Translations under genes and position numbers: made by a program
Shown: positions 28,572 through 64,000 of the stretch, in pieces
How the letters are laid out: the number at the start of each line of letters is the position of its first letter
Numbering within the stretch: the first letter of the stretch is position 1
Notes under the pieces: model-generated
Told to the model about the DNA's origin: nothing
Seen by the model: only the letters and a program-made list of their open reading frames with translations
Databases searched by the model: none
Assembly: GCA_951406725.2 (NCBI GenBank)
Contig: OX597814.1
Span: 152,024,001 to 152,088,000, forward strand
DNA length: 64,000 bases
From: Octopus vulgaris
Taxonomy: Eukaryota
Direction of reading: 5' to 3'

Positions 28572-28802
28572 ATTTCTTTACTACCCACAAGGGGCTAAAC
28601 ACAGAGGGGACAAACAAGGACAGACAAACGGATTATGTCGATTACATCGACCCCAGTGCGTAACTGTTACTTAATTTATCGATCCCGAAAGGATGAAAGG
28701 CAAAGTCGACCTCGGCGGAATTTGAATTCAGAACGTAACGGCAGACGAAATACGGCTACGCATTTCGCTCGGTGTGCTAACGTTTCTGCCAGCTCGCCGC
28801 CT
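28572..28802 (-). mobile_element. Young full-length SINE family B copy inserted into an older SINE pair
   Basis: Near-consensus reverse complement of 38989-39223; flanked by ttattata duplication. Confidence 0.9.
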
Positions 28803-29144
28803 TATTATAATCATGCTAAAGGTGGTGATCGTGCAGAATCGTTAGCGAGTCGAACAAAATGCTTAACAGCATTTCCTCTGGCTGAGATATGCTGACGATG
28901 TAGAACTATTTTATGTTGCGGTTTATTGAAGTTCAAAATTTAAATACTTACATTTAAGATAGGGAAACTGAAGAGAAAGTGAATTGCTTTCCCATGGCAT
29001 GAAGGAAAAGTCCTTGCCTTTTCGATAAATGGAAAAGTTCTCGCCTTCGATAACAAAAGATGCTTATCGAGTTTTGGGAGTTGATTTATTTAACTGTTAT
29101 CGCTATAAATTTGTGGCTTAGTACCAATGTTCAAAAGTAATATC

Positions 29145-31377: not shown

Positions 31378-31800
31378 GTCCAATGCTACTAGCTTTAATG
31401 CAGCTTCTTGTCCTAACTCGATCCTGGTTCATTTACAGTAGGTGTTTTCAGGTGATAATGATACTTAATTCCCAGTAACTATCAAGTTCAAGTAATTAAT
31501 ATTTAAGTGTCATCACTAACATACTTTAAGTCGTGAATTTTATTCTATTTAATTGATCTATGTGTTCTAAGATGACAGTACAAGCCTATTCTTTATCTAA
31601 AAGAAACCTAGCGACGTGGAAGTGAGAATAGGAATGCAGCCGAGTCTAAGAGAACTTGTTGAGTTGCTTCCCTCCATCGACGGCTTCTTATGTCAACCTT
31701 ATATTTACACTTACTTTCAAAGTTATCGCGCCCAATGTAGTACTTTCTCCTTTAGAGTTGACGATCAAATGCATCAATCATCCACGGGGAAACGCTAATA

Positions 31801-33009
31801 GGGGAGACCGGGTCTTGTTGTTACACGGCTAAGTTGTTACAAGTCCATTGTTTCCAACTTCAAGAAATAGGTGGCACTCGGGTCTCTACCTCTTGAAGGC
31901 CAACTCCATAGCATCATGACTGCACATGTGCATTGCACTGGCGGGCTGTCACCAGGAAAGGTATGGCTCAAAAAACGATTTTTTACTCCAAAAGTGAAAT
32001 TTTGCCACAAAGTTATTTCCTTAACTACTAAAGCACAAGTGGTGTTACTGAAGTTGTTTATGGCTCATTAGGAAGTGTTAGAAGTTGCCTTCGATACATA
32101 AAGGTGTGTCCTGGATGCCATGCATTGCTGGTGCTGTGTACGAGGTAATCCCCAGAAATCCATGGTTGGGGCTAATTGTTACAGTGTATCAACTTACCCC
32201 TTCTATTTCAGTTTAACACGCTATGCCTAGAAATTACAAAAGGAAGACTACAAGGGGAGATATCTCTCCTGATGTCATGGAAAGAGCCGCCAGAAAAGTT
32301 GTGGATGAAAAGAAATTATTACGGGATGTTGCCGTAAAACGGCGCATAGTGGATGAAATAAACGAAAGGAAATCCAAAGCAAAAAAGGCAACTGGTACAG
32401 AAAAGGCAACAAAGTGGAAGGGAAAGTCAACTAAAACAGGTAAAGGCAAAGGGAAGCAACCTCGCAGCAAGCAAGTCACCGATTGGAAATGCCTTGTCTG
32501 CTCAGATTGGTATTCCAACTCTCTTCCAGGTGAAGACTGTGCAATGCATGATCTGTAAAGTCTAGGCACACACTGACTCTACCGATGGACGACAGGACTT
32601 TCTGTGTGATCTGTGTGGTGAGAAGTTAATGGAGGACGATTCCGATTAGATGGCACATGTAATAATGGGGAAATTGGCTGATGAGGACTCTCAGTATCAC
32701 AATTAGGATATGAGATAGTTCAAAGCACAGTTAATAATACTTCCTAGGTGCTTGAAGCAGGAGACGTATCCATTTTAAACTTGTTTGTTAACACCTCGCA
32801 CTCAGGGAAAATTGTTACATCTGACACCACCTCATTAATTAGAACTTGTCTAGTTAATGTTATGTAATTTCTATTTTTTTTTGCTGGTGATAACAATAAA
32901 TAGAGATCTAATTAAATCTGAAAGTAAACTTTAGCTGTGTTCATTTATGTGGGTGCCAAGGCATAAAAAAAAATGAAAACTAAATGTAACAACTAGACCC
33001 GGTCTCCCC
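31801..33009 (+). mobile_element. Internally deleted pogo/Fot1-like (Tc1/mariner superfamily) transposon, 1209 bp
   Basis: 25-bp TIRs ggggagaccgggtct(t/a)gttgttaca with 1 mismatch; TA on both sides; internal ORF with psq-HTH-like start and PHD-like end. Confidence 0.85.
32223..32649 (+). pseudogene. Deleted transposase: pipsqueak-HTH-like N-terminus joined to Lys-rich linker and PHD-like finger
   Basis: MPRNYKRKTTRG...MERAARKVV...LRDVA; CLVC then, after a frameshift, QCMICKV*AHTDSTDGRQDFLCDLC; no DDE core. Confidence 0.75.
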
Positions 33010-33079
33010 TATTAAAGTTTTGAATTCAGAGTACCAGAAAGGTATCATCTTTGAATAGATGATGCAGTTTATATAGCCT

Positions 33080-33990
33080 TTCTCTGTTCATTGGTGTTCT
33101 AATCGCAGGAAAGACTCAAAGCTTAGTCTTCTGCCTTAGTACCAAGTTCCACCAGGAGAATCTGTTTCATAGACCTGGTCAGGTTGAAAGGGACGATCCT
33201 AGATAATGACCGCTACAGATATTTTAGCGTAGGGAAGCCATTTTGGCCGATACGAGATATCTTTTACCATAATCAGGCTTTTGGCTCGCAGAAGAGTAAG
33301 GCATAAACCTTAAAAAGAATTCTCAGAAAAACCTATTTGGAAGTTACTTTGGTTTCTTGGGTTAGATTTTTCTATTCCTCTGAACTATTATGAAAACAGT
33401 ACACCTATTACACAATTAAGTTATTAAGGTATATGATATGACGAGTCAGCGAACACGTTTGGCTTCTTCCAGTCAAGCAAACTAACCCTTTTTCGATCAA
33501 TATCGCCTACGGGATTCACATTGCGTCCTACTGTACAACAACTGCTTCCCAAATCTTCTGCGATAGATAAGCAGTAGCCAAGCCATCATCCATATTTTGT
33601 CATTTGTAAAGTCGTTTACACAAAACTGTGCTGCACCGACTGAAGCAAAGAACATTGCTGAAGTCAGCCACCCTTATTTGAGCTGAAGTAATGTCTTCAA
33701 GACTACAATAAAAATAATAAAGAGTGTCTTCTAGCACTTCCCATCTTACAAATTTTCCAAATTTCAGGAGACTTTTTCGGCTCCTTGCCGACAGAATCTC
33801 TATTAACTTTGCAGACTCCTCCTACCTTCTATATGTTAATCATGATCTATTTCCACAACACAAATTTTCCTAAATTCTCCTTTTTCACGTCACCAGTAAA
33901 CATAGAGACCGTATTAGTAGTTTTACCTCGAGTACAAAGAGTAACCAAATCTCCGGCCGTTTGATGAATGGTCTTGACGGTGTCTCTAAC
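33080..33990 (-). mobile_element. HERO/R2-group (RLE) non-LTR retrotransposon C-terminal remnant
   Basis: Minus-strand 'TRSMKQILLVEL' resembles RLE 'S...KQIILIELT'; upstream 'CRQGA', 'KFVRWE' and 'AYLSQ' resemble 'QGAW.KWE' and 'ALSQGRY'. Confidence 0.5.
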
Positions 33991-33993
33991 ATT

Positions 33994-34365
33994 AGGCGGC
34001 GAGCTGGCAGAAACGTTAGCACGCCGAGTGAAATGCTTAGCGGTATTTCGTTTGACGTTACGTTCTGAGTTCAAATTCCGCCGAAGTCGACTTTCATCCT
34101 TTCGGGGTCGATAAATTAAGTACCAGTTACGCACTGGGGTAGATGTAATCGACTTAATCCGTTTGTCTGTCCTTGTTTGTCCCTTCTGTGTTTAGCCCCT
34201 TGTAGGTAGTAAAGAAATCGGTATTTCGACCATCGCTACGTTCTGAGTTCAAATTCCGTCGAGGTCGACTTTGCCTTTCATCCTTTTGGGGTCGATAAAT
34301 TAAGTACCAGTGAATAGACTAGTCCCCACGCCCCAAATTTCAGGCCTTGTGCTTTGAATAGAAAA
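33994..34365 (+). mobile_element. SINE family B full copy followed by a head-less second unit
   Basis: Full unit 33994-34219; second unit restarts at ggtatttcg (34220). Confidence 0.85.
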
Positions 34366-35329
34366 CATAAAAGATTATTATTAAATAGTGCGACTCAGAA
34401 CTAACTTCTAATCGTACCTAACTAATATTTATCCCGCTACAGTATTTTAATCTGAGATTTATCTTAATATTTGAAAGCATGTCATAGTGAGCTCCATACC
34501 CATGAGGACAATCATTTTCACTTTGCTAACACGAACAATTACTGCTGTTCCCCAAACCCCAAAACCCCAAAATCCCCAAATCGATGAAAACACTTATAAG
34601 TAATCATCTTTATCAATGGTATTGGGTCTCTCATTTTTCATTATTTGGCTTTGTGGATCTCGATCAACTTGTCATGTCGTTCACCAATGGTTGTCTTTTT
34701 CATACGAGTACTGCAGTAAAAATAATGTTGCACTCGAACATCAGTAGACGGTGTCTGTTATTAGACTCCTTTATCCAAGTTGCTCGCTTATAGCTCAAAC
34801 ATATCTCACATGTATTCAATCGGAACTCTCTTGTTAGACCACACCATTATGCCATGTGCTTCTGAGAGCTCTAACTGAATCGTACTTTATTGACTCAGGT
34901 GTATCCTAAGATGTGTTAATTCTCCCACACTCATAATTCTGACCATTTGAACTACGTTTTTTTATTTCTAACAAGATATTCTTCTGTACAGATGACGCGA
35001 GTATACACTTTTCATTAACTTTCTGTACGAAGCTATAATCCAAATTAAATATACCTTTCGTCTAATCTACATTTGCCTTCATGAACAGAGATTTCGGAAG
35101 CATCCGCTAAGGGAGACATTATAACACAGTTACTTTCAACAAAACGAAAACACTATCACTATACATATCAAGGAAACTGTTATCTAACTGAGCCTCTACA
35201 AATAAGCAGCACAATTTCATAAAATCTCTACAAATACTTGACGTTATAATATCAGATAATTTCTCATATATATAGACTCGCCAAAATTACGCCTCTATTT
35301 TAATGGTCAGAAAATCATTTTTCTTTGAG

Positions 35330-35720
35330 TAGTCACTGACCCTCTACGAAGATCAGGTACGATACATATATTTATGGACGGTTCTCCTGTTACACAAACA
35401 AATATCCAATACCTCATCCAAAAGAAAGCGAACCAACAGATCGACACAGATTCGATCCTCAACAACCTAAAACAACTTGGCTCACAGATGCACTGTTTCT
35501 TCTCACCGTCTTGTCTACTACTGCTGCTTTTCCAGACTAGCAAGCTACATGCTACGTCCACTGAAGACAATCTAATCGTATATCTTACTGTCTCCTCCCT
35601 TGATGTCACACGAAATATACCTGTCGCTTTCTTTCCTAGATGGATATGCAATCCTCTCCTCTCTCTCGTATTTCTTGCAAACATTGACCTAAAGTGTTCA
35701 AATTGAATATCATCTATATC
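35330..35720 (+). mobile_element. CR1/L2-type LINE 3' remnant
   Basis: 'DGSPVTQTNIQYLIQKKANQQIDTDSILNNLKQL' and 'AFFPR' resemble 'W.G.....L..LDRIQ.KA.RLI...L.PLAHRR' and 'SFFPR'. Confidence 0.7.
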
Positions 35721-37424
35721 AAAACGTCTTACCAGTCTCGGGGAATATACAAAGGACACAGGGACTGCTCTCTTCTCACTGACAATTGGAAACAATGTAA
35801 ATGGAAGAAATATGTATCTAAATGGTTTTTTTTATCACTATAGCAATTTTCTAAAAATATAAGAAAGTCTGTAGCTGACAAAAAAAATTAAAATACATTT
35901 ATCTAACACATATTGCGTTTTATAAAAACAGAATTTATGGTAGGTTGTAAGTTCTATAAACATATTACATTTCCTTAAATATAGCTGTCATACTATTGTG
36001 GCTGATGAGTTGCTTAGAGAGATATGATATCGAATAGTAGAATAAATTTTTTGATAACAAAAGATAAATTTGTTTTGGTAATCACAGCATCAAGCGGACT
36101 TCAAAAGAATTTCGCTGCCAGATTTCTCAGACACAGTATATTTATTTCGTCAAATACAATAAAATACAATAGGTGCCATTCATGTGTTACTGAAGTTGCA
36201 TTAAAATGAGAGTATAAATCATGGAACTGCATGCTATTTTGATTGTATCTATTATAATTAATACAACACTCTTATTCCTTGATTTACATCTTCCGTAAGT
36301 CTTAGAATCGATAATAAAATTCTAAGCAACGAAGAAATCATTTATGTTAAAATGTAAACAGTTCATTTCAACACTGCCAGTTAGATTCAGACGATTTTTT
36401 CCACAGGAAAAGAAAAAGACTTCTTTTCAACTAAATTCGTATAAAATTTTAAATATTTTATGTATTGAAAATAAATACGAGGCTGCGTTTATAGAAATAA
36501 ATCTCTGGTTTGTAGTAATTTTTTGCTATTTCTACGAAGCATGTAATTCTAATATTTTAAAAGAAAAGAAAGTTGCCTCTCAATGGTTTTAGTTGCTTTT
36601 CGAATAGAAAACTCTGTTCAACCGGAAATTAAAAGCAAATTTTTACATCAGTTAGCCGGAGGTTTAACACCTGCTTTGAAGAAAATCAACAAGAAGTTTT
36701 ATGATTAATGGGTAAATTACCTTTATTTCACACTTATTTGAATAAACTCTGCTAATCATTACATTCGAAATATGTTTGCTTATTTCAATACTCTATATTA
36801 TGAAAGGCTTTTAATGGCTCTCGATATTTTGGTAAAATACCCTTCCATAGCCCAGAGAATTAAAAGAAAGGCTATCATATATAATTCCAACATATACCAG
36901 AATCAGTGGATATATTAAATGCGATGACTAATATGAAATTGTATTTTCCAGTAATAATGAAAATGACCAAAATGACTATTTTGAAGTCTTCCATCTTCAA
37001 AAAATCTTTGAAGATGAAGCCTATATGTTGTTGACTTCATGCAAATGTGCAAGAATGACGGGTTGAATGGCAGAATAGTCGTATATAAGGTGGGCATATA
37101 CTTATTATCGATACAAATAAGGTGATATAAATAATGTCAAACCGGGTTTGGAACGGAATCCCAAATGTACCTCACAGAAGGAAATTACAATCCAATAAGA
37201 TCATAACTTCTCGCGAAGCATGTTTTCTAGAGTTGAAATGAGATGTCACTTTTATTTCTGCAACTGACATTCGTTTGAGACGTTTTCCAATATCATATAC
37301 AATACTGCATGTATGAAAAGAATCCTCAAACCACTGACTCAAAGAAGTTGAAGGATGACAGTTTATGCAAAACGTACAAGATAACACATAAACATTATAC
37401 ATACATACATGAAAACACACACAA

Positions 37425-37472
<48 letters not shown>

Positions 37473-38180
37473 ACATAAATAAAAATATATATTGTGTCTC
37501 GTTGCTATGAAACTTTTGAAGGAAAATCTTTATGATTATGGTACGTGTAATTATTATTTTCATTGTGAATGTGAATGCGTTGATGGATAAGTTTCGTATG
37601 GTAGCAGAACATCCATGGCTCTTCATTCGACTCAAAAGATCAGACATCGCTGATTAGGTATTATGTTTCTCAACATCTTTTTGGCGGTTTCAGTGTCAGA
37701 TGTGTCAAGTGTCGTCGATCAGTAGAATTGGTAGAGCGATGAACAAAATTCTTTGTATCATATAGTTACTTCTCTTAACATTCTAAGTTTAAATTCTGTC
37801 GACATCAACTTTACCTTGGGGTGGAGTGGTAATCAATAAAGTGCCAAGGAAATACGGAGTTATTGTGACTTTATGCTCATATCGGAAGTCCGTATTGAAT
37901 GTAAAGCTGATTAAAACATCTTGAAGATGTTAATACTGAACTGAGACATTTAATTTGAAGAATTAGACACCAAAATTTACTCCTATCCTTCTTCTTCAAT
38001 ACCGAAAACCACTTCACATTTATATATTCCACACAAACATTGATCTGCAAAAGTTCAAATTGTCTATTATTTATATTAATACTAGCCAGATGTTTCTAAA
38101 CTGTAGTTTCAGAGAAATTGGAAAAGCGACAAGAGTTTCATGAATTTCTGACTAAACTAAAAACAGTAAAAGCATTTGCA

Positions 38181-38432
38181 TTCATATCTACAACTTCATA
38201 CTTGGTACTTTTCATATCTACCACTTGGTACTTTTCATGTCTGCCGTTGATATTCTTTATATCTACCTATTGGTACACTTCATATCTGCCTATTGATACT
38301 CTTCATATTTGCTTATTGATAATCTTCATATCTACGTACAGGTACTCTTCGTATTTACCACTTGGTACTCTTCTTAAGTACTTATTGGTACTCTTTATAT
38401 CTACCTATTAGGTACTCTTCATATCTACTACT
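38181..38432. repeat. Degenerate minisatellite of about 23 bp (ttcatatctacctattggtactc)
   Basis: About 11 units visible; duplicated at about 48578-48829. Confidence 0.85.
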
Positions 38433-38988
38433 TGAAATCATTCATAGTTGCAAATCTAGGACATTGCAACTCTTCTATGCATTTTAAAATATTATTTGGA
38501 GCAGCCACAGATTCAAATGTCTCCTTCACTGAAAGTTTATTTGACATTAAGTATTATTGGAAACTTATGAAATCTTTAGGCACATTCATAAAAATATTGA
38601 TGTGAAAATCTCCAGCAATAGATTGAAAATTTAATGCAACTATGGATTAATTAATCAATGAATACAAAGAAACAAACAAAAAAAAAACAGAATTGATTCT
38701 AGCGACAGATGACATAAAATCCATTTGGTCAAATAGTTATACTTTGAGCACTCTCAGTCATACACAGACACATACGCACGCATGAAATAACGGCTAAAAT
38801 ATAATGATAATGATATCAGACAATTTTGTACATCTGCTTATTGATTTTTTCACGACTACTTTCATTAGTATAGTAAATGACAATGCATCACTGACGGGAC
38901 CATTATAAGAACAAAATATACCCGGAGTTGTGACATACAGATTTACTATTTAATTTAGTACTTTGCGCAGTAGGTATGTACAAAAGTT

Positions 38989-39223
38989 AAGGCGGCGAGC
39001 TGGCAGAATCGTTAGCACGCTGGGCGAAATGCTTAGCGGTATCTCGCCTGTCTTTACGTTCTGAGTTCAAATTCTGCCGAGGTCGACTTTGCCTTTCATC
39101 CTTTCGGGGGTCGATTAAATAAGTACCAGTTACGCACTGGGGTCGATATAATCGACATAATCCGTTTGTCTGTCCTTGTTTATCCCCTCCGTGTTTAGCC
39201 CCTTGCAGGTAGTAAAGAAATAA
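38989..39223 (+). mobile_element. Full-length SINE family B with 15-bp TSD
   Basis: gtatgtacaaaagtt at 38974-38988 and 39224-39238. Confidence 0.95.
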
Positions 39224-40090
39224 GTATGTACAAAAGTTTTTCTTGCTGCCTGATGGAGCAGCGATATGATCGAAGTGATTTCAGCTGTTCACCAAGCAAT
39301 CTTTTATATAACATATAGAACTACATTATCCAATGGTTACCATCTCTTTTTAAAGAGAGAAAAGAGTGATTTATGAAAAATTGGCACTTATTTCTAGCCA
39401 GACAAGCGGCCTAGTAGATAACCCCTCATTGACTCGTAGTTGTTCAAGTTCATTGTTACTGATGTATGTGAGGAATACGAATTCACCTGTTGTATTTGAC
39501 GGACGCCGTATTCTGAATTGTAATGATTACAAGACCTCTATTATGTAGTAACTGTAGCTTTATTCATAGTTCCACATAATTTAATGAGTTTTATGGTTTT
39601 ATACTTAAAATATTTCGTTATACTATCCACAAACGTGTTATTAGAGTTGCGATTAACTACGCCAAATCTGATTGAATTAACATCAGGTTGGTGCGTATAA
39701 AATATACTCTTTGGCGAAATGATTTATTAATTGAAATGTTTTATATAACTGGAATAATTATAATAATTTAGCTTACTATAAAGGCTAGCGGCTTTAGCGA
39801 AAACGGTGATATTTATGCGTTGGTGTATATAATAATATATAGTGGAAACCTACCACTTTACAGATTACTCTGTGCGTAGAATTTTCCAAGGAAGAGTTTT
39901 AATCAAGTGTGACTTGTTAGTACCAGTCCAGTTGCACATACTCTGAATAATATCTTTATCAATATATATCAAAAAGCTTGAAAGCTTAAAGTGGTTTGAT
40001 TTAATGCATGTACAATGGTGATATCTATGATAGATTGAAGTTGAACATATACAAAATTATGAAAAGTATGTATGTACATATGCATGCATG

Positions 40091-40168
<78 letters not shown>

Positions 40169-40876
40169 CGTGCATTCATATAAGTTTATGTGTATGTGTG
40201 TGTGTACATGTCGGAATGTATGCATACATATATATTTATATACATATTTATATACGTATGTATATAAATAGGTGTGTATATGTGTATAAATATACATATA
40301 TATATATACAAATATCTGTAGATATATACACACTTTGATGTATGTACGTATATGTATACACGTATACATATAATATTATTGTATATATACAAAAATATGT
40401 AAATATATACATGTGTGTGTATCTGAGTATAATAGCAAAACTGAAACATGATATTTTACAATTTATATAAATTATTGGAGCAAAATAAACCATAACGACA
40501 CTTAAGCGTTAGAATAACTTATTCCCTAATAGGGAGGGTAAACATCAACAACAACAACAACAAAAACAACAACAAAACAATAACCAATCAATAGTTATGT
40601 GAATTTAACTCTGTCAACCACACCTGACTACTTGCTTGTATGTAGCTTTCGTGATATAAAATATCTAAACAGGCAATCACATAACGGATTGCATGGTATT
40701 GGGCAAGATAACATTTTATTCTGTCTCAAGCCTCCAGAAAGAGAAAGAGAGAGATTGAGTAACAAAGGGATATAGGCAGAGACAAAGAGAGGGGAACTTT
40801 ACCAGCTGGATGTTACAATACGATGCATGTATGTATATAGATACGTGTGTGTGTTTCTACATGTGTATGTATACAT

Positions 40877-40945
<69 letters not shown>

Positions 40946-41829
40946 CAAATAGGATGCATAAATAAGTGGTGAAGAATAGTAAGACCGATAACAAGGAAGG
41001 TGCGGTGGACAGGCAACACCTGAGCAATACACTCACAAAATGTACGCATGCGTGTGTGTATGTATGTATGTATTATGTATGTATGCAGGAAATAATATGC
41101 CGTATGCATATGAACGTCAACATGTACACTTTAAACATTACATTTGCTGAAACGAGAAACAATATGATTGTGTTGATTAGTAATAAGAATTGTTTCTCTC
41201 GAAGAAAAGCTTATAATACCAGACTACTGGCCTACTTTGTTTCTTGCGTAGAGTTCCATTAGAAAGTGAGTGGTGAATCATATCGTAGATTCGTAAGTAG
41301 GAAAGAAAAATCAATATCGGAGACACTCTCAGAAAAGTGCTTTAATTATTAGTACAGTATTAGAACGAGATTTTTTTCTTTATTAAGATAAATTTGTCTG
41401 ACACATGACTGTCCCGACGAACGCTGTATATGAGGAAGCACAGAAATGGATCTTCTTAAACAAGGTTTACTCCTCATTTTAACAAACAGTATTATTTTGT
41501 CCTCTTTACTTGCTAATGATTGGTGAAAGAAAGCATGTACGCCACAACGCCCTCTTACTTAGCTTCTCATTCTAATCAACCAGTTATCACACATTCATGA
41601 ATAATACACATCATCATTATTATAATCATCATCGTTGTCGTAGTCGTCGACATCATCATCACTACCATCATCATTATAATCATCATGATGAAATCCTTGA
41701 TATTACTGTTTCGAATCCTAGGACCCGTAAGGTCCGGTTTTCATAGAGTATGTGTGTTACCGGGATCACAATACTCTCCCTGAACAGGACGTCAGTCCCT
41801 CGCAGGCTCATTCATTTACAGCTGATCGG

Positions 41830-41929
41830 NNNNNNNNNNNNNNNNNNNNNNNNNNNNNNNNNNNNNNNNNNNNNNNNNNNNNNNNNNNNNNNNNNNNNNN
41901 NNNNNNNNNNNNNNNNNNNNNNNNNNNNN
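41830..41929. other. Assembly gap (100 N)
   Basis: Exactly 100 N, a usual placeholder for gaps of unknown size. Confidence 1.
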
Positions 41930-42203
41930 TAAGTCGTGAATTTTATTCTATTTAATTGATCTATGTGTTCTAAGATGACAGTACAAGCCTATTCTTTATC
42001 TAAAAGAAACCTAGCGACGTGGAAGTGAGAATAGGAATGCAGCCGAGTCTAAGAGAACTTGTTGAGTTGCTTCCCTCCATCGACGGCTTCTTATGTCAAC
42101 CTTATATTTACACTTACTTTCAAAGTTATCGCGCCCAATGTAGTACTTTCTCCTTTAGAGTTGACGATCAAATGCATCAATCATCCACGGGGAAACGCTA
42201 ATA

Positions 42204-43412
42204 GGGGAGACCGGGTCTTGTTGTTACACGGCTAAGTTGTTACAAGTCCATTGTTTCCAACTTCAAGAAATAGGTGGCACTCGGGTCTCTACCTCTTGAA
42301 GGCCAACTCCATAGCATCATGACTGCACATGTGCATTGCACTGGCGGGCTGTCACCAGGAAAGGTATGGCTCAAAAAACGATTTTTTACTCCAAAAGTGA
42401 AATTTTGCCACAAAGTTATTTCCTTAACTACTAAAGCACAAGTGGTGTTACTGAAGTTGTTTATGGCTCATTAGGAAGTGTTAGAAGTTGCCTTCGATAC
42501 ATAAAGGTGTGTCCTGGATGCCATGCATTGCTGGTGCTGTGTACGAGGTAATCCCCAGAAATCCATGGTTGGGGCTAATTGTTACAGTGTATCAACTTAC
42601 CCCTTCTATTTCAGTTTAACACGCTATGCCTAGAAATTACAAAAGGAAGACTACAAGGGGAGATATCTCTCCTGATGTCATGGAAAGAGCCGCCAGAAAA
42701 GTTGTGGATGAAAAGAAATTATTACGGGATGTTGCCGTAAAACGGCGCATAGTGGATGAAATAAACGAAAGGAAATCCAAAGCAAAAAAGGCAACTGGTA
42801 CAGAAAAGGCAACAAAGTGGAAGGGAAAGTCAACTAAAACAGGTAAAGGCAAAGGGAAGCAACCTCGCAGCAAGCAAGTCACCGATTGGAAATGCCTTGT
42901 CTGCTCAGATTGGTATTCCAACTCTCTTCCAGGTGAAGACTGTGCAATGCATGATCTGTAAAGTCTAGGCACACACTGACTCTACCGATGGACGACAGGA
43001 CTTTCTGTGTGATCTGTGTGGTGAGAAGTTAATGGAGGACGATTCCGATTAGATGGCACATGTAATAATGGGGAAATTGGCTGATGAGGACTCTCAGTAT
43101 CACAATTAGGATATGAGATAGTTCAAAGCACAGTTAATAATACTTCCTAGGTGCTTGAAGCAGGAGACGTATCCATTTTAAACTTGTTTGTTAACACCTC
43201 GCACTCAGGGAAAATTGTTACATCTGACACCACCTCATTAATTAGAACTTGTCTAGTTAATGTTATGTAATTTCTATTTTTTTTTGCTGGTGATAACAAT
43301 AAATAGAGATCTAATTAAATCTGAAAGTAAACTTTAGCTGTGTTCATTTATGTGGGTGCCAAGGCATAAAAAAAAATGAAAACTAAATGTAACAACTAGA
43401 CCCGGTCTCCCC
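42204..43412 (+). mobile_element. Duplicate of the pogo-like element
   Basis: Same TIRs, same flanks and same ORF (42626-42961). Confidence 0.85.
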
Positions 43413-44398
43413 TATTAAAGTTTTGAATTCAGAGTACCAGAAAGGTATCATCTTTGAATAGATGATGCAGTTTATATAGCCTTTCTCTGTTCATTGGTGT
43501 TCTAATCGCAGGAAAGACTCAAAGCTTAGTCTTCTGCCTTAGTACCAAGTTCCACCAGGAGAATCTGTTTCATAGACCTGGTCAGGTTGAAAGGGACGAT
43601 CCTAGATAATGACCGCTACAGATATTTTAGCGTAGGGAAGCCATTTTGGCCGATACGAGATATCTTTTACCATAATCAGGCTTTTGGCTCGCAGAAGAGT
43701 AAGGCATAAACCTTAAAAAGAATTCTCAGAAAAACCTATTTGGAAGTTACTTTGGTTTCTTGGGTTAGATTTTTCTATTCCTCTGAACTATTATGAAAAC
43801 AGTACACCTATTACACAATTAAGTTATTAAGGTATATGATATGACGAGTCAGCGAACACGTTTGGCTTCTTCCAGTCAAGCAAACTAACCCATTTTTCGA
43901 TCAATATCGCCTACGGGATTCACATTGCGTCCTACTGTACAACAACTGCTTCCCCAAATCTTCTGCGATAGATAAGCAGTAGCCAAGCCATCATCCATAT
44001 TTTGTCATTTGTAAAGTCGTTTACACAAAACTGTGCTGCACCGACTGAAGCAAAGAACATTGCTGAAGTCAGCCACCCTTATTTGAGCTGAAGTAATGTC
44101 TTCAAGACTACAATAAAAATAATAAAGAGTGTCTTCTAGCACTTCCCATCTTACAAATTTTCCAAATTTCAGGAGACTTTTTCGGCTCCTTGCCGACAGA
44201 ATCTCTATTAACTTTGCAGACTCCTCCTACCTTCTATATGTTAATCATGATCTATTTCCACAACACAAATTTTCCTAAATTCTCCTTTTTCACGTCACCA
44301 GTAAACATAGAGACCGTATTAGTAGTTTTACCTCGAGTACAAAGAGTAACCAAATCTCCGGCCGTTTGATGAATGGTCTTGACGGTGTCTCTAACATT

Positions 44399-44770
44399 AG
44401 GCGGCGAGCTGGCAGAAACGTTAGCACGCCGAGTGAAATGCTTAGCGGTATTTCGTTTGACGTTACGTTCTGAGTTCAAATTCCGCCGAAGTCGACTTTC
44501 ATCCTTTCGGGGTCGATAAATTAAGTACCAGTTACGCACTGGGGTAGATGTAATCGACTTAATCCGTTTGTCTGTCCTTGTTTGTCCCTTCTGTGTTTAG
44601 CCCCTTGTAGGTAGTAAAGAAATCGGTATTTCGACCATCGCTACGTTCTGAGTTCAAATTCCGTCGAGGTCGACTTTGCCTTTCATCCTTTTGGGGTCGA
44701 TAAATTAAGTACCAGTGAATAGACTAGTCCCCACGCCCCAAATTTCAGGCCTTGTGCTTTGAATAGAAAA
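44399..44770 (+). mobile_element. Duplicate SINE B dimer
   Basis: Matches 33994-34365. Confidence 0.85.
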
Positions 44771-47700
44771 CATAAAAGATTATTATTAAATAGTGCGACT
44801 CAGAACTAACTTCTAATCGTACCTAACTAATATTTATCCCGCTACAGTATTTTAATCTGAGATTTATCTTAATATTTGAAAGCATGTCATAGTGAGCTCC
44901 ATACCCATGAGGACAATCATTTTCACTTTGCTAACACGAACAATTACTGCTGTTCCCCAAACCCCAAACCCCAAAATCCCCAAATCGATGAAAACACTTA
45001 TAAGTAATCATCTTTATCAATGGTATTGGGTCTCTCATTTTTCATTATTTGGCTTTGTGGATCTCGATCAACTTGTCATGTCGTTCACCAATGGTTGTCT
45101 TTTTCATACGAGTACTGCAGTAAAAATAATGTTGCACTCGAACATCAGTAGACGGTGTCTGTTATTAGACTCCTTTATCCAAGTTGCTCGCTTATAGCTC
45201 AAACATATCTCACATGTATTCAATCGGAACTCTCTTGTTAGACCACACCATTATGCCATGTGCTTCTGAGAGCTCTAACTGAATCGTACTTTATTGACTC
45301 AGGTGTATCCTAAGATGTGTTAATTCTCCCACACTCATAATTCTGACCATTTGAACTACGTTTTTTTATTTCTAACAAGATATTCTTCTGTACAGATGAC
45401 GCGAGTATACACTTTTCATTAACTTTCTGTACGAAGCTATAATCCAAATTAAATATACCTTTCGTCTAATCTACATTTGCCTTCATGAACAGAGATTTCG
45501 GAAGCATCCGCTAAGGGAGACATTATAACACAGTTACTTTCAACAAAACGAAAACACTATCACTATACATATCAAGGAAACTGTTATCTAACTGAGCCTC
45601 TACAAATAAGCAGCACAATTTCATAAAATCTCTACAAATACTTGACGTTATAATATCAGATAATTTCTCATATATATAGACTCGCCAAAATTACGCCTCT
45701 ATTTTAATGGTCAGAAAATCATTTTTCTTTGAGTAGTCACTGACCCTCTACGAAGATCAGGTACGATACATATATTTATGGACGGTTCTCCTGTTACACA
45801 AACAAATATCCAATACCTCATCCAAAAGAAAGCGAACCAACAGATCGACACAGATTCGATCCTCAACAACCTAAAACAACTTGGCTCACAGATGCACTGT
45901 TTCTTCTCACCGTCTTGTCTACTACTGCTGCTTTTCCAGACTAGCAAGCTACATGCTACGTCCACTGAAGACAATCTAATCGTATATCTTACTGTCTCCT
46001 CCCTTGATGTCACACGAAATATACCTGTCGCTTTCTTTCCTAGATGGATATGCAATCCTCTCCCTCTCTCTCGTATTTCTTGCAAACATTGACCTAAAGT
46101 GTTCAAATTGAATATCATCTATATCAAAACGTCTTACCAGTCTCGGGGAATATACAAAGGACACAGGGACTGCTCTCTTCTCACTGACAATTGGAAACAA
46201 TGTAAATGGAAGAAATATGTATCTAAATGGTTTTTTTTATCACTATAGCAATTTTCTAAAAATATAAGAAAGTCTGTAGCTGACAAAAAAAATTAAAATA
46301 CATTTATCTAACACATATTGCGTTTTATAAAAACAGAATTTATGGTAGGTTGTAAGTTCTATAAACATATTACATTTCCTTAAATATAGCTGTCATACTA
46401 TTGTGGCTGATGAGTTGCTTAGAGAGATATGATATCGAATAGTAGAATAAATTTTTTGATAACAAAAGATAAATTTGTTTTGGTAATCACAGCATCAAGC
46501 GGACTTCAAAAGAATTTCGCTGCCAGATTTCTCAGACACAGTATATTTATTTCGTCAAATACAATAAAATACAATAGGTGCCATTCATGTGTTACTGAAG
46601 TTGCATTAAAATGAGAGTATAAATCATGGAACTGCATGCTATTTTGATTGTATCTATTATAATTAATACAACACTCTTATTCCTTGATTTACATCTTCCG
46701 TAAGTCTTAGAATCGATAATAAAATTCTAAGCAACGAAGAAATCATTTATGTTAAAATGTAAACAGTTCATTTCAACACTGCCAGTTAGATTCAGACGAT
46801 TTTTTCCACAGGAAAAGAAAAAGACTTCTTTTCAACTAAATTCGTATAAAATTTTAAATATTTTATGTATTGAAAATAAATACGAGGCTGCGTTTATAGA
46901 AATAAATCTCTGGTTTGTAGTAATTTTTTGCTATTTCTACGAAGCATGTAATTCTAATATTTTAAAAGAAAAGAAAGTTGCCTCTCAATGGTTTTAGTTG
47001 CTTTTCGAATAGAAAACTCTGTTCAACCGGAAATTAAAAGCAAATTTTTACATCAGTTAGCCGGAGGTTTAACACCTGCTTTGAAGAAAATCAACAAGAA
47101 GTTTTATGATTAATGGGTAAATTACCTTTATTTCACACTTATTTGAATAAACTCTGCTAATCATTACATTCGAAATATGTTTGCTTATTTCAATACTCTA
47201 TATTATGAAAGGCTTTTAATGGCTCTCGATATTTTGGTAAAATACCCTTCCATAGCCCAGAGAATTAAAAGAAAGGCTATCATATATAATTCCAACATAT
47301 ACCAGAATCAGTGGATATATTAAATGCGATGACTAATATGAAATTGTATTTTCCAGTAATAATGAAAATGACCAAAATGACTATTTTGAAGTCTTCCATC
47401 TTCAAAAAATCTTTGAAGATGAAGCCTATATGTTGTTGACTTCATGCAAATGTGCAAGAATGACGGGTTGAATGGCAGAATAGTCGTATATAAGGTGGGC
47501 ATATACTTATTATCGATACAAATAAGGTGATATAAATAATGTCAAACCGGGTTTGGAACGGAATCCCAAATGTACCTCACAGAAGGAAATTACAATCCAA
47601 TAAGATCATAACTTCTCGCGAAGCATGTTTTCTAGAGTTGAAATGAGATGTCACTTTTATTTCTGCAACTGACATTCGTTTGAGACGTTTTCCAATATCA

Positions 47701-47829
47701 TATACAATACTGCATGTATGAAAAGAATCCTCAAACCACTGACTCAAAGAAGTTGAAGGATGACAGTTTATGCAAAACGTACAAGATAACACATAAACAT
47801 TATACATACATACATGAAAACACACACAA

Positions 47830-47877
<48 letters not shown>

Positions 47878-49385
47878 AAAAATATATATTGTGTCTCGTT
47901 GCTATGACACTTTTGAAGGAAAATCTTTATGATAGTGGTACGTGTAATTATTATTTTCATTGTGAATGTGAATGCGTTGATGGATAAGTTTCGTATGGTA
48001 GCAGAACATCCATGGCTCTTCATTCGACTCAAAAGATCAGACATCGCTGATTAGGTATTATGTTTCTCAACATCTTTTTGGCGGTTTCAGTGTCAGATGT
48101 GTCAAGTGTCGTCGATCAGTAGAATTGGTAGAGCGATGAACAAAATTCTTTGTATCATATAGTTACTTCTCTTAACATTCTAAGTTTAAATTCTGTCGAC
48201 ATCAACTTTACCTTGGGGTGGAGTGGTAATCAATAAAGTGCCAAGGAAATACGGAGTTATTGTGACTTTATGCTCATATCGGAAGTCCGTATTGAATGTA
48301 AAGCTGATTAAAACATCTTGAAGATGTTAATACTGAACTGAGACATTTAATTTGAAGAATTAGACACCAAAATTTACTCCTATCCTTCTTCTTCAATACC
48401 GAAAACCACTTCACATTTATATATTCCACACAAACATTGATCTGCAAAAGTTCAAATTGTCTATTATTTATATTAATACTAGCCAGATGTTTCTAAACTG
48501 TAGTTTCAGAGAAATTGGAAAAGCGACAAGAGTTTCATGAATTTCTGACTAAACTAAAAACAGTAAAAGCATTTGCATTCATATCTACAACTTCATACTT
48601 GGTACTTTTCATATCTACCACTTGGTACTTTTCATGTCTGCCGTTGATATTCTTTATATCTACCTATTGGTACACTTCATATCTGCCTATTGATACTCTT
48701 CATATTTGCTTATTGATAATCTTCATATCTACGTACAGGTACTCTTCGTATTTACCACTTGGTACTCTTCTTAAGTACTTATTGGTACTCTTTATATCTA
48801 CCTATTAGGTACTCTTCATATCTACTACTTGAAATCATTCATAGTTGCAAATCTAGGACATTGCAACTCTTCTATGCATTTTAAAATATTATTTGGAGCA
48901 GCCACAGATTCAAATGTCTCCTTCACTGAAAGTTTATTTGACATTAAGTATTATTGGAAACTTATGAAATCTTTAGGCACATTCATAAAAATATTGATGT
49001 GAAAATCTCCAGCAATAGATTGAAAATTTAATGCAACTATGGATTAATTAATCAATGAATACAAAGAAACAAACAAAAAAAAAACAGAATTGATTCTAGC
49101 GACAGATGACATAAAATCCATTTGGTCAAATAGTTATACTTTGAGCACTCTCAGTCATACACAGACACATACGCACGCATGAAATAACGGCTAAAATATA
49201 ATGATAATGATATCAGACAATTTTGTACATCTGCTTATTGATTTTTTCACGACTACTTTCATTAGTATAGTAAATGACAATGCATCACTGACGGGACCAT
49301 TATAAGAACAAAATATACCCGGAGTTGTGACATACAGATTTACTATTTAATTTAGTACTTTGCGCAGTAGGTATGTACAAAAGTT

Positions 49386-49620
49386 AAGGCGGCGAGCTGG
49401 CAGAATCGTTAGCACGCTGGGCGAAATGCTTAGCGGTATCTCGCCTGTCTTTACGTTCTGAGTTCAAATTCTGCCGAGGTCGACTTTGCCTTTCATCCTT
49501 TCGGGGGTCGATTAAATAAGTACCAGTTACGCACTGGGGTCGATATAATCGACATAATCCGTTTGTCTGTCCTTGTTTATCCCCTCCGTGTTTAGCCCCT
49601 TGCAGGTAGTAAAGAAATAA
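49386..49620 (+). mobile_element. Duplicate SINE B with TSD
   Basis: Matches 38989-39223. Confidence 0.9.
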
Positions 49621-51232
49621 GTATGTACAAAAGTTTTTCTTGCTGCCTGATGGAGCAGCGATATGATCGAAGTGATTTCAGCTGTTCACCAAGCAATCTT
49701 TTATATAACATATAGAACTACATTATCCAATGGTTACCATCTCTTTTTAAAGAGAGAAAAGAGTGATTTATGAAAAATTGGCACTTATTTCTAGCCAGAC
49801 AAGCGGCCTAGTAGATAACCCCTCATTGACTCGTAGTTGTTCAAGTTCATTGTTACTGATGTATGTGAGGAATACGAATTCACCTGTTGTATTTGACGGA
49901 CGCCGTATTCTGAATTGTAATGATTACAAGACCTCTATTATGTAGTAACTGTAGCTTTATTCATAGTTCCACATAATTTAATGAGTTTTATGGTTTTATA
50001 CTTAAAATATTTCGTTATACTATCCACAAACGTGTTATTAGAGTTGCGATTAACTACGCCAAATCTGATTGAATTAACATCAGGTTGGTGCGTATAAAAT
50101 ATACTCTTTGGCGAAATGATTTATTAATTGAAATGTTTTATATAACTGGAATAATTATAATAATTTAGCTTACTATAAAGGCTAGCGGCTTTAGCGAAAA
50201 CGGTGATATTTATGCGTTGGTGTATATAATAATATATAGTGGAAACCTACCACTTTACAGATTACTCTGTGCGTAGAATTTTCCAAGGAAGAGTTTTAAT
50301 CAAGTGTGACTTGTTAGTACCAGTCCAGTTGCACATACTCTGAATAATATCTTTATCAATATATATCAAAAAGCTTGAAAGCTTAAAGTGGTTTGATTTA
50401 ATGCATGTACAATGGTGATATCTATGATAGATTGAAGTTGAACATATACAAAATTATGAAAAGTATGTATGTATGTACATATGCATGCATGTATGTATAT
50501 ATATATATGTGTGTGTGTGTATGTGTGCGTGCATTCATATACGTGTATGTGTATGTGACTGTGTGTGAGTGTGTGTGTGTACATGTCGGAATGTATGCAT
50601 ACATATATATTTATATATATATTTATATACGTATGTATATAAATAGGTGTGTATATGTGTATAAATATACATATATATATATACAAATATATGTAGATAT
50701 ATACACACTTTTATGTATGTACACACGTATACATATAATATTAATGTATATATACAAAAATATGTAAATATATACATGTGTGTGTATGTGAGTATAATAG
50801 CAAAACTGAAACAGGATATTTTACAATTTATATAAATTATTGGAGCAAAATAAACCATAACGACACTTAAGCGTTAGAATAACTTTTTCCCTAATAGGGA
50901 GGGTAAACAACAACAACAACAACAACAACAAAACAATAACCAATCAATAGTTATGTGAATTTAACTCTGTCAACCACACCTGACTACTTGCTTGTATGTA
51001 GCTTTCGTGATATAAAATATCTAAACAGGCAATCACATAACGGATTGCATGGTATTGGGCAAGATAACATTTTATTCTGTCTCAAGCCTCCAGAAAGAGA
51101 AAGAGAGAGATTGAGTAACAAAGGGATATAGGCAGAGACAAAGAGAGGGGAACTTTACCAGCTGGATGTTACAATACGATGCATGTATGTATATAGATAC
51201 GTGTGTGTGTTTCTACATGTGTATGTATACAT

Positions 51233-51303
<71 letters not shown>

Positions 51304-52099
51304 CAAATAGGATGCATAAATAAGTGGTGAAGAATAGTAAGACCGATAACAAGGAAGGTGCGGTGGACAGGCAACACCTGAGCAATACACTCACAAAATG
51401 TACGCATGCGTGTGTGTATGTATGTATGTATTATGTATGTATGCAGGAAATAATATGCCGTATGCATATGAACGTCAACATGTACACTTTAAACATTACA
51501 TTTGCTGAAACGAGAAACAATATGATTGTGTTGATTAGTAATAAGAATTGTTTCTCTCGAAGAAAAGCTTATAATACCAGACTACTGGCCTACTTTGTTT
51601 CTTGCGTAGAGTTCCATTAGAAAGTGAGTGGTGAATCATATCGTAGATTCGTAAGTAGGAAAGAAAAATCAATATCGGAGACACTCTCAGAAAAGTGCTT
51701 TAATTATTAGTACAGTATTAGAACGAGATTTTTTTCTTTATTAAGATAAATTTGTCTGACACATGACTGTCCCGACGAACGCTGTATATGAGGAAGCACA
51801 GAAATGGATCTTCTTAAACAAGGTTTACTCCTCATTTTAACAAACAGTATTATTTTGTCCTCTTTACTTGCTAATGATTGGTGAAAGAAAGCATGTACGC
51901 CACAACGCCCTCTTACTTAGCTTCTCATTCTAATCAACCAGTTATCACACATTCATGAATAATACACATCATCATTATTATAATCATCATCGTTGTCGTA
52001 GTCGTCGACATCATCATCACTACCATCATCATTATAATCATCATGATGAAATCCTTGATATTACTGTTTCGAATCCTAGGACCCGTAAGGTCCGGTTTT

Positions 52100-52290
52100 C
52101 ATAGAGTATGTGTGTTACCGGGATCACAATACTCTCCCTGAACAGGACGTCAGTCCCTCGCAGGCTCATTCATTTACAGCTGATCGGACTGGAGCAATGC
52201 GACATGAAGTATTTTGCTCCAGAACACAACGCATCGACTCGCAAGGTCGAGAATCCAAAACCCTAACCACTAGGACACACGCCCTCACAT
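52100..52290 (-). mobile_element. Old CORE-type SINE (minus strand)
   Basis: actggagcaatgcgacatgaagtattttgctccagaacacaacgc is the reverse complement of a CORE-like head. Confidence 0.5.
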
Positions 52291-57592: not shown

Positions 57593-58833
57593 TTGGGTCA
57601 TCCCATAAATAATGCGGTCTATACTTCTTTAAGTTTTTAGAATTAAGATAAAATTCTTTTTTAATCTAAAATATACTCTCCTTTATTTTTTACAATGCTC
57701 TTCCATCTATCTGGTAGACCTGCAAGGCCCCTCTTTGAAAAATTCACTTGTCCGTGACGAAAAGCACACCTCCAGTACCTCTATAGAATTCATTTTTTTC
57801 TGTCCAAATGATTTTGAAGACAGCGGAATAAATGATACTCCGGTGGCGAATATGGTGGCTGGGGTATCGTTTTCCATTCAAACTGCTCCAGCCTTTGAAA
57901 TGTCATCCTCGCTGTATGTGGCCGAGCATTATCCTGATGGAAGAACACCTTTCGTCTTGAAACCAAAGATGGTCGTTTTCCTTCTCGCACTCACTCAGTG
58001 CTCGCAGTAGACCTTTGCTATCGTTTGGTTTGGGTTTAAAAGTTCAAAGTGAACAAACCCTTTCATATCCCACCATACAGACAGCAACACCCAACGTGGG
58101 TGTAAACCTTCTTTAGCCGGGGGGGGGGGGGTTCTCCTTTCCCTACCCACTGTCGTCGGCGCTTGACATTTTTATAGAGAACCCGTTTCTCGTCACCAGT
58201 CACCATTCGGTCCAAAAAAGGTTCAATTCGTGAGATGTGACAGCAAAGAAAAGCACACATTCACTGCTCCCGAGCGATTAGACTCGGAAAGTTTGTAAGG
58301 AACCTATCGACCTAATTTGCTGACTTTTCCGATAGTACGCAGGTGTCGATGGATGGTTCAATGACCAAATCTAAGCTTGTCTGCTAGTTCCTCAACAGTT
58401 ACGATGGGATTTTGTTCCACCAGGGTCTGCAGGACGTCCTCACCGAGCTCTATAAATCTTCCAGGACGAGGTTCGTCTTCTACCCTGTATTTTCCGGCTC
58501 GGAATTTCTGGAACCAACGTTGACACTGCCTTACGCTTATCGTCCGATCCCCATATATTGCATTAATATTCCTTGCACTTTCCATTGCCTTGTTGCCTTT
58601 ATTGAACTCATAAAACAAAATATGTCGAATATGCTCCTTTGCCACTTCCATTATATCTTTGAAAAATAACTGTTAAAATCGAACAGCACTCTTCAAAACT
58701 TGCGTTAAGAATAAGTACAAGGTAAAATTACTACCTGCTTTTATAGCAAGTTGATACAGGTAGTTTATCCCGCCCCCCCTCCAACTTTTAGTTCATGCAA
58801 TTGAAAAAGCCGCATTGTTTATGGGATGGCCTA
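57593..58833 (-). mobile_element. Near full-length mariner transposon (about 1.24 kb)
   Basis: TIRs ttgggtcatcccataaataatgcgg / ccgcattgtttatgggatggccta; TA flanks; transposase remnant inside. Confidence 0.92.
57661..58651 (-). pseudogene. mariner transposase pseudogene
   Basis: MEVAKEHIRHILFYEF...QRWFQKFRAG HTH; 'VTGDEK'; 'HQDNARPH'; 'PPYSPPEYHLF'; C-terminus 'RWKSIVKNKGEYILD*'; several frameshifts and stops. Confidence 0.93.
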
Positions 58834-61785: not shown

Positions 61786-61836
<51 letters not shown>

Positions 61837-61868
61837 TTTATTTTAAGCAGCAGAAAATTCAACAAAAT

Positions 61869-61906
61869 CTGTTACTCTGAGTTTCTCGTTGCCGTTCATC
61901 AGACAG
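61869..61906 (-). ncRNA. Minimal type I hammerhead ribozyme in the pLTR
   Basis: Minus strand: ctgt-CTGATGA-a-cg-gcaa-cg-a-GAAA-ctc-a-gag-TA-acag; stem I ctgt/acag, intact core, GUA site. Confidence 0.75.
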
Positions 61907-62911
61907 TTTTTGCTAGAATGGAACATATATATTAATTCAATCTATACTCTTACAAACGCTACACCTTTAAAAAGAAATGGACTTGTTTGATTGGCCCTTT
62001 AGAAAAAACGGTCAATCTTCGAGCGATAAACAAAAAGGTCAAAAATATATGTATATATATATAAAAAACTTATAAAATTATAAAATCCGAGGAAAAAACC
62101 GAGGAAAAAACCTATTGCCGTTAATGAAGACAGTACAAATTAATGCATAGAAATTAAACCTGTTATAAATACTGCAATACATATTTATATTAAAATCCAC
62201 ATATATATATCAACATACACAAAAGGATGCGCGTAAACGCCATACATACATATACAGACGTATGAATATGAATCTAAATTATACACATAAAAGCATGTGT
62301 ACATATATTCACGCAAACCGTCTCGCACGCAAGCTAAAATTCATCTATGTAGCAATTCTCATATACTGAGCAAGGAGGGGGAACGAAAGAAAGGGAAAGA
62401 GAGAAAAAGAAACGAAGGAGGGGTGGGGAAAACTTGTAGCGATATTATTGACATCTATAGAGGCCAGTATACATACACAAGTTTGAATTGATACATATAC
62501 ATACCGTCGTGTGTATGCGTGCTTAAGCACAAGCATACTTTCACTTACACATACACAGATACGCATGCTTACAAATATATATGCTTTGCTATATACAAAC
62601 TTATATAAACATTCTAAATTTGACAACATTGCTTTTTTTAAAAAAAACATTGCTTTTAAAAAATGGGTGCATTAATAAAAATATATACGAAAGACATATA
62701 AAATAAAATATAACATCCTATTTTGGGTCATTTATAAATAATCAAGGTAATATAAATAATCAAGGTAATCTTATGCAATACAATAACATGAAAACAAAGT
62801 TTGTAGGTTTTTCCTAATATATATGTAGAAACAATAAGACTTTGCTATAGTTCCGTCGTAGCGCTCAAGAGTCAAAATCAAAATCAAAAAATCAAAATAC
62901 AAAATATATAC

Positions 62912-63064
62912 AAATATAATTTCAAGTGCAGGCTCTGCTTATTAGAAAAAATGCACATATTATTCAAAGACAATAATTCTTTGAATCAAAGAAGTGAATT
63001 AATGAACTTATGTAGGCACACGGCTAAATTTAAAATGTCGAATATAAATATACCATATGGATAG
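62912..63064 (+). pseudogene. C-terminal 50 codons of a PLE GIY-YIG endonuclease ORF
   Basis: Open frame KYNFKCRLCLLEKMHILFKDNNSLNQRSELMNLCRHTAKFKMSNINIPYG*; matches PLE pattern 'C.LCL.EK..I...LN.RSE....CRH..K'. Too short for the ORF track. Confidence 0.85.
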
Positions 63065-64000
63065 AGTATATATTTTGTATTTTGATTTTTTGATTTTGAT
63101 TTTGACTCTTGAGCGCTACGACGGAACTATAGCAAAGTCTTATTGTTTCTACATATATATTAGGAAAAACCTACAAACTTTGTTTTCATGTTATTGTATT
63201 GCATAAGATTACCTTGATTATTTATATTACCTTGATTATTTATAAATGACCCAAAATAGGATGTTATATTTTATTTTATATGTCTTTCGTATATATTTTT
63301 ATTAATGCACCCATTTTTTAAAAGCAATGTTTTTTTTAAAAAAAGCAATGTTGTCAAATTTAGAATGTTTATATAAGTTTGTATATAGCAAAGCATATAT
63401 ATTTGTAAGCATGCGTATCTGTGTATGTGTAAGTGAAAGTATGCTTGTGCTTAAGCACGCATACACACGACGGTATGTATATGTATCAATTCAAACTTGT
63501 GTATGTATACTGGCCTCTATAGATGTCAATAATATCGCTACAAGTTTTCCCCACCCCTCCTTCGTTTCTTTTTCTCTCTTTCCCTTTCTTTCGTTCCCCC
63601 TCCTTGCTCAGTATATGAGAATTGCTACATAGATGAATTTTAGCTTGCGTGCGAGACGGTTTGCGTGAATATATGTACACATGCTTTTATGTGTATAATT
63701 TAGATTCATATTCATACGTCTGTATATGTATGTATGGCGTTTACGCGCATCCTTTTGTGTATGTTGATATATATATGTGGATTTTAATATAAATATGTAT
63801 TGCAGTATTTATAACAGGTTTAATTTCTATGCATTAATTTGTACTGTCTTCATTAACGGCAATAGGTTTTTTCCTCGGTTTTTTCCTCGGATTTTATAAT
63901 TTTATAAGTTTTTTATATATATATACATATATTTTTGACCTTTTTGTTTATCGCTCGAAGATTGACCGTTTTTTCTAAAGGGCCAATCAAACAAGTCCAT

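Follow-up and report, generated by a model that had tools for sequence, protein, structure and literature searches.

The closest described system to the locus reported here is the Hydra clade of Penelope-like elements (PLEs). According to Craig et al. 2021 (PMC8557442), CxxC and CxH motifs flanking the catalytic E and N of a C-terminal endonuclease are specific to this clade, its members carry canonical hammerheads, and (TA)n is the target in nearly all the families listed there; for Naiads the same source describes an N-terminal endonuclease and the absence of canonical hammerheads. Further characters of the clade are RWK and DKT motifs, a CxCX5C linker and the absence of CCHH and IFD; endonuclease-bearing (EN+) PLEs in general may have a 30-40 bp tail at one end and a target-site duplication. 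The formation of tandem and inverted PLE repeats and the bias towards microsatellites are both named in that paper as unresolved. Judged by title and abstract, it was the only paper concerning the clade among those listed by a literature search on Hydra-clade PLEs, and a search on Penelope, octopus and genome expansion found no paper.

Other described elements share part of these properties. Penelope-13_HM (Repbase, Hydra magnipapillata) carries at the 5' end an inverted copy that is 5'-truncated (nt 1-966), and each of its strands contains a hammerhead; layout and scale are the same as in the locus studied here, from which it differs in host, hammerhead sequence and family. Poseidon PAc from Anolis carolinensis, of another clade, is described by Frangieh et al. 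2024 (PMC11167929) as the sole full-length PLE protein to have been examined in vitro; it cleaves AT-rich DNA on both strands and starts reverse transcription internally, hammerhead cleavage being dispensable, and its hammerhead overlaps the start of the ORF, unlike the 3'-end hammerhead found here. In Octopus vulgaris, 31 Penelope-like families and 336 recently active insertions have been annotated (PMC13282606), and in the available text of that source the word Hydra is never used.

Structure of the hairpin and its 3' end

The window (the whole stretch of 64,000 nt that was analysed) ends in a large hairpin whose inverted arms (61977-62911 and 63066-64000) measure 935 nt each, are 100% complementary and lie 154 nt apart, the right arm being cut by the window edge. 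Inverted pairs of the next size in this stretch, around 235 nt, corresponded to microsatellite matches. The initial annotation had described perfect arms of at least 935 bp and a loop made of a single open frame, and both descriptions were confirmed: the arms are exact reverse complements, and the loop has 50 open codons (62912-63064, plus strand) closed by a TAG at 63062-63064, which we assign to the end of an ORF for a reverse transcriptase (RT) and an endonuclease.

The left arm belongs to a longer unit of 1,076 nt (61836-62911, minus strand), covered along its length by contigs of the same family and interpreted as an inverted, 5'-truncated copy of the element. It comprises nearly the entire 3' UTR, with its 3' end towards an exact (TA)20 microsatellite at 61796-61835 (extended to 61786 by TRF), the likely target site, in such a way that the left end of the element directly adjoins a (TA)n tract, as in insertions of the Hydra clade. 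The right arm (63066-64000, plus strand, limited by the window) is the 3' UTR of the forward copy, as supported by the contiguity of ORF tail and UTR in a contig from a public sequencing run (run X3, record 21); it is predicted to reach around 64141 and to contain its hammerhead at around 64071-64108.

At the inversion junction, a TAC (62909-62911, plus strand, with a partner GTA at 63066-63068) closes the left arm and serves at the same time as a Tyr codon of the ORF. Because this codon is common to both, the ORF reaches back to at least 62909. Its double assignment follows from X3 record 21, in which the frame continues upstream of 62909 with the translation DRAAPYRHGA, which aligns with a relative of the peptide, P0007, just before the CxxC. 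What is seen of the ORF of this family is the tail and around 10 further upstream codons.

The presence of a hammerhead at 61869-61906, near the (TA)n tract, had also been proposed initially. A type I hammerhead descriptor found a single site on the two strands of the window, precisely there and on the minus strand (motif 61906-61869), and none in 60 locally shuffled windows. The motif is minimal, with the core CUGAUGA at 61902-61896, an extendable stem I (CUGU/ACAG), a weak stem II of only 2 bp with a GCAA loop and an A.A flank, and GAAA followed by a palindromic stem III with a 1-nt loop. The edge of the (TA)20 tract (61835) lies 33 nt from the motif and 37 nt past the cut predicted after 61873, at a GUA triplet, and the segment from the cut site to the element end (61836-61872, minus strand) contains an AATAAA at 61842-61837. 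Rfam did not call the hammerhead either at the gathering score or at E<=10, and the minimum-energy fold did not contain the active core (z -1.63). Both results were expected, since minimal PLE hammerheads with a palindromic helix III are thought to require a dimer and to cleave poorly in vitro (PMC4209133). As predicted from these features, the element carries a canonical type I hammerhead near its 3' end with a 1-nt palindromic stem III, as in the Hydra clade (PMC8557442), from which it differs in its 2-bp stem II. By eye, the hammerheads of Penelope-3_HM and Hydra-2_aMil in File S2 of the same paper have the same layout, the latter sharing stem I, core and cut triplet with the window motif, from which it differs by the letter of the stem III loop.

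The loop peptide and the assignment to the Hydra clade

A full HMMER scan (phmmer) with the 50-residue peptide of the loop gave 170 proteins at E<=1e-3 (the best at 2.2e-6, none reaching 1e-10); of the 150 matches listed from them, 133 carried the tail CxxCxxE...NxRxE....CxH. Against a profile of 61 full-length relatives, the peptide scored 41.4 bits, placed at the end of the profile, while the best of 1000 shuffles of the peptide reached 7.9 bits; hhalign gave a probability of 97.8, and the distance of 14 residues from CxH to the stop equals the median of 59 relatives. No match was obtained with Pfam on the peptide or with the tail in word-index protein searches, and PDB sequence profiles gave nothing relevant; among the relatives, Pfam called GIY-YIG in no more than 1 of 53 and 3 of 60. 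A match to P0027, a repetitive protein, was treated as spurious.

The architecture of the relatives was studied through P0007 (713 aa), which matches the peptide at its very end. Its residues 400-713, used as query, gave 2309 candidates, of which 813 were at E<=1e-10 and the 120 best were listed. The fetched relatives of at least 690 aa (n=61) showed an RW[KR]-type motif in 55 cases, DK[TS] in 60, [YF]RDD in 61, CxCX4-6C in 58 and the tail in 59, the endonuclease motifs being partly built in by the query and the N-terminal ones not. The RT motif was N-terminal to the tail in all 59 full-length relatives having both. The model of P0007 (pLDDT 90.8) matched reverse transcriptases, with TERT within the top four. 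P0006, an endonuclease-only match 54% identical to the peptide, gave a model similar to the catalytic domain of I-TevI (Z 10.4, rmsd 2.2, 89 aligned), T4 EndoII (Z 8.5) and UvrC (Z 7.2), the matched range spanning the E and N retained by the peptide. With this endonuclease model Foldseek gave no match at E<=0.001, GIY-YIG enzymes occupying the top ranks. These data support that the loop encodes the putative last 50 residues of a GIY-YIG endonuclease, as the initial annotation had supposed.

In the peptide, the pattern C6xxC9-E12...N25...C34xH36 corresponds to the Hydra-clade tail described in the text of Fig. S7 of PMC8557442. The score of the peptide with RT-GIY-YIG relatives, the hammerhead near the 3' end and the TA target agree with the earlier proposal of a Penelope-like element, and we consider with good confidence that it is a Hydra-clade PLE, young and truncated, with its end recopied in reverse.

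The searches retrieved no full-length member or RT of the window's family, the nearest relative being 50% identical over the tail. A pattern with a longer spacer before the CxxC matched, among 281 stored proteins, P0007 and P0147 only; these two may be closer kin of the window's family, in which the letters upstream of the tail hint at the same long spacer.

The layout of the locus is already on record, and comparison with described members of the clade suggests that the family is new and has an unusually long 3' UTR. This UTR would have around 1,077 nt provided that the right arm is a mirror image of the left one, against approximately 200-280 nt by eye in three Hydra consensi, and because it is so long, a full copy would probably exceed the '<3 kb' given as typical of the clade (PMC8557442). 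Hydra-1_Obim, from Octopus bimaculoides, belongs to the same clade, has a TA target and shows a similar distance from the cut to the 3' end (around 36 nt by eye). Nevertheless, its C-terminus is different, ending in EAVGSCPHFRKFLLQ, its UTR is short and unrelated and its hammerhead is different, so that identity with it was ruled out by eye. The family was not found described: it is set apart from the six new Hydra consensi of PMC8557442, a comparison that left out 21 Repbase families. The O. vulgaris repeat library of PMC13282606 may already hold it.

Copies of the family and origin of the inverted arm

In 20 of the 24 public runs listed, from 10 studies and under four organism labels, at least half of the sampled words of the element were present. 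The best-matching run may be the source sample of the window, and none of the 24 is an RNA run, so they have no bearing on expression. The contigs of four of these runs were aligned to 61840-63130 at 85% likeness, yielding 4312, 6524 and 2619 matching contigs in the three deep runs and 8 in X3, with 1433, 1439 and 749 in the deep runs at 99% or more; these figures indicate many young copies and are not copy numbers. Single contigs reached depths of 751-1689, against 16-49 for unique joints. The family is young and abundant, with many near-identical copies.

Some heterogeneity among the copies was also detected. The U4 of the hammerhead core is replaced by C in 31-65% of the summed contig depth in all four runs, and three different letters occur at the position closing stem II (window positions 61901 and 61886, minus strand); unlike many of these copies, that of the window retains the canonical core. 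Around the hammerhead and 3' end (61845-61924), the summed depth peaks and three joints with short added letters were found, which suggests that very short or rearranged 3'-end copies are numerous. The dominant subfamily differs by run (positions 62956, 62998 and 62851), in such a way that a G at 62998 accounts for 4% in X1 and 100% in X8 and X17, despite the identical organism label of X1 and X8. Recent bursts specific to a lineage are hinted at, unless this is contig-depth noise.

Among these contigs, X3 record 21 runs contiguously through ORF tail and UTR from 62909, with a loose end upstream, and a loose end at the same place was found in X8. The seven joints listed correspond to one normal copy, two same-strand skips within the UTR and four inversions at other positions: 62647>62909 and 62592>62973 in X8, 62661>62968 in X1, and 61942/61992 in X1 and X17. 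These four have a depth of 16-49 and come from three runs, one of them being seen in two. Their sides measure 22-34 nt (under 30 nt in three joints), and because they are short each joint alone constitutes modest evidence. Together with the window's own, there are five breakpoints of the 5' truncation with inverted terminal repeat known from endonuclease-bearing (EN+) PLEs. As the ORF continues upstream of the loop and the joints break at differing points, the arm is the 3' UTR and not a fixed-length pLTR. The pLTR of about 1.1 kb proposed initially is therefore discarded, this figure being the truncation point of the window copy, whereas the reading of the left arm as an inverted 5'-truncated copy was reinforced.

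The insert consists of the ORF tail and the 3' UTR, preceded head-to-head by a second, inverted copy of the 3' UTR whose visible 3' end is on the (TA)n tract. We regard it as probably a dead-on-arrival insertion of a young, abundant Hydra-clade retrotransposon; this copy cannot encode a working protein. In the mechanism that we propose, an intact copy elsewhere would supply the RT-GIY-YIG protein, which would nick the TA tract and start reverse transcription on the element RNA at a point around 37 nt beyond the cut site of the hammerhead. Because the start would lie downstream of this site, the RNA would be uncut at the hammerhead, which appears consistent with the dispensable hammerhead cleavage of the Poseidon element in vitro (PMC11167929). 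Synthesis of the cDNA would then abort after around 1.23 kb, 51 codons into the ORF, and the 3' end of the cDNA would snap back through the 3-nt TAC/GTA match and copy itself, giving rise to an identical inverted arm; finally, the TA tract, being self-complementary, could close the second junction by annealing with the opposite side. A related self-priming on an antisense template has been proposed for head-to-head PLE inversions (PMC3846280). We give snap-back of the cDNA an even chance of being the origin of the inverted arm, the 3-nt overlap in itself being a weak sign, with about 8% expected by chance in a hand estimate.

A dimeric protein could alternatively cut both strands of the TA tract, each of them priming a cDNA, and the two truncated cDNAs could be end-joined head-to-head. 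For the Poseidon protein of Anolis, cleavage and extension of both strands have been described and a dimeric state is predicted (PMC11167929), and among the four other inversion joints two have extra letters and one has no overlap, as in end-joining, the fourth having a 3-nt overlap. The TAC overlap at the window junction goes against this route. So does the T found in both arms at positions 62578 and 62594, at which C accounts for 92-100% of the family depth; these shared rare letters place both arms in one template lineage, although two RNAs of a single donor would give the same result. We hold this route to be a possible one, on which we would not rely. Counting many fresh, independent junctions could separate it from snap-back.

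The hairpin could also be an artefact in which one ordinary truncated copy was folded back on itself during assembly or library preparation. The 100% identity of the arms would fit it, and so would the unmerged 10.3-kb overlap located 10 kb upstream, a sign of imperfect assembly. Amplification chimeras, too, arise at short overlaps. Moreover, an assembly fold-back keeps some room because none of the listed contigs spans the junction (no bridge at 62911|62912 among the 32 contig pieces listed, there being 13,572 more) and the right end lies beyond the window. By contrast, the left arm ends at the natural 3' end of the element on the TA tract, comparable joints are found at further breakpoints in three runs, with one such joint shared by two of these, and the layout is published for the Hydra clade (PMC8557442). 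We consider such an artefact improbable, and the hairpin is very likely real in the genome.

The age of this insertion was estimated from the arms, which differ at 0 of 935 sites. At the divergence of the 10.3-kb upstream duplication, probably two haplotypes (35 substitutions, which predicts around 3 per 935 nt), zero differences would have a P of 0.04, or 0.006 with gaps. At an octopus rate of 0.0036 per million years (PMC13282606), and assuming an octopus host and no polishing or conversion, arm identity gives a 95% bound of around 0.45 million years. Together with the many near-identical copies of the family, this identity sustains the recent activity that had been deduced from the arms. 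Long inverted repeats and short-read polishing can each homogenise arms, so that an older insertion with arms equalised by gene conversion, cruciform repair or polishing was contemplated as well; nevertheless, the window copy differs from the per-run majority at a handful of listed positions in 1,291 nt, its ORF tail is intact and its hammerhead core is canonical, and we find an older insertion very improbable.

The Naiad-type label of the initial annotation has practically no chance of being correct: Naiads share TA preference and tandem or inverted insertions with this element and Naiad remnants exist in octopus, but they have an N-terminal endonuclease followed by a C-terminal RT, CxC and CCHH motifs and no canonical hammerhead, whereas here the ORF ends in the endonuclease tail followed by a stop and the UTR, a hammerhead is found at 61869-61906 and the tail motif is specific to the Hydra clade. 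Because the element is not a Naiad, the associated selenoprotein lead loses its basis; a crude SECIS pattern matched the hammerhead alone, and the tail has no in-frame TGA.

Double-stranded RNA potential and the neighbouring DNA

If transcribed through, and only then, the hairpin would form around 1 kb of dsRNA, with a folding energy of approximately -1,580 kcal/mol; the strong ADAR/RNAi substrate foreseen in the initial annotation depends on such read-through. Penelope repeats are heavily edited in a lizard, and the exceptionally high hyper-editing of octopus has been tied to long dsRNA (PMC5625713), so such hairpins would be candidate substrates for A-to-I editing if the host is an octopus, as the interspersed repeat at about 28572-28805 and a sequence rich in microsatellites and in AT suggest. 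A broader and rather unlikely proposal is that this recently expanded, long-UTR Hydra family routinely integrates by snap-back and closes the second junction through the self-complementary TA target, seeding many perfect hairpins of 0.7-1 kb in the host genome, apparently that of an octopus; if true, they would provide a measurable part of the long dsRNA that feeds A-to-I hyper-editing and small RNAs, and would constitute the first large natural dataset on the formation of PLE inverted repeats. Taken alone, the locus is an ordinary one for its clade; it is of value because it gives access to a family, young and abundant, within a clade that has been little studied. Rfam miRNA-like matches in the arms were far below the gathering score and followed TA/TG runs.

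In the rest of the window, a host-gene domain was found in none of the 150 ORFs covered out of 164 filtered ORFs of at least 58 aa, a survey that omits the duplicated block at 41930-52187 and low-complexity ORFs and misses short exons. The direct duplication mentioned above (31527-41829 and 41930-52187, 10.3 kb, 99.1% identity) directly borders the only 100-N gap (41830-41929), and most likely corresponds to two unmerged overlapping contigs or haplotypes at a scaffold join and not to a real tandem duplication. Transposase remnants of Tc1/mariner type were detected on the minus strand, with HTH_48 and Transposase_1 at 58361-58672 and 57998-58171, respectively, and DDE_3 at 5205-5534 within a remnant spanning 5205-5923. 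Finally, a SINE-like interspersed repeat of around 230 nt, which we take to be typical of octopus genomes, was found at 28572-28805, 33991-34218 and 38988-39222, among other places, several of its copies being 70-91% identical.
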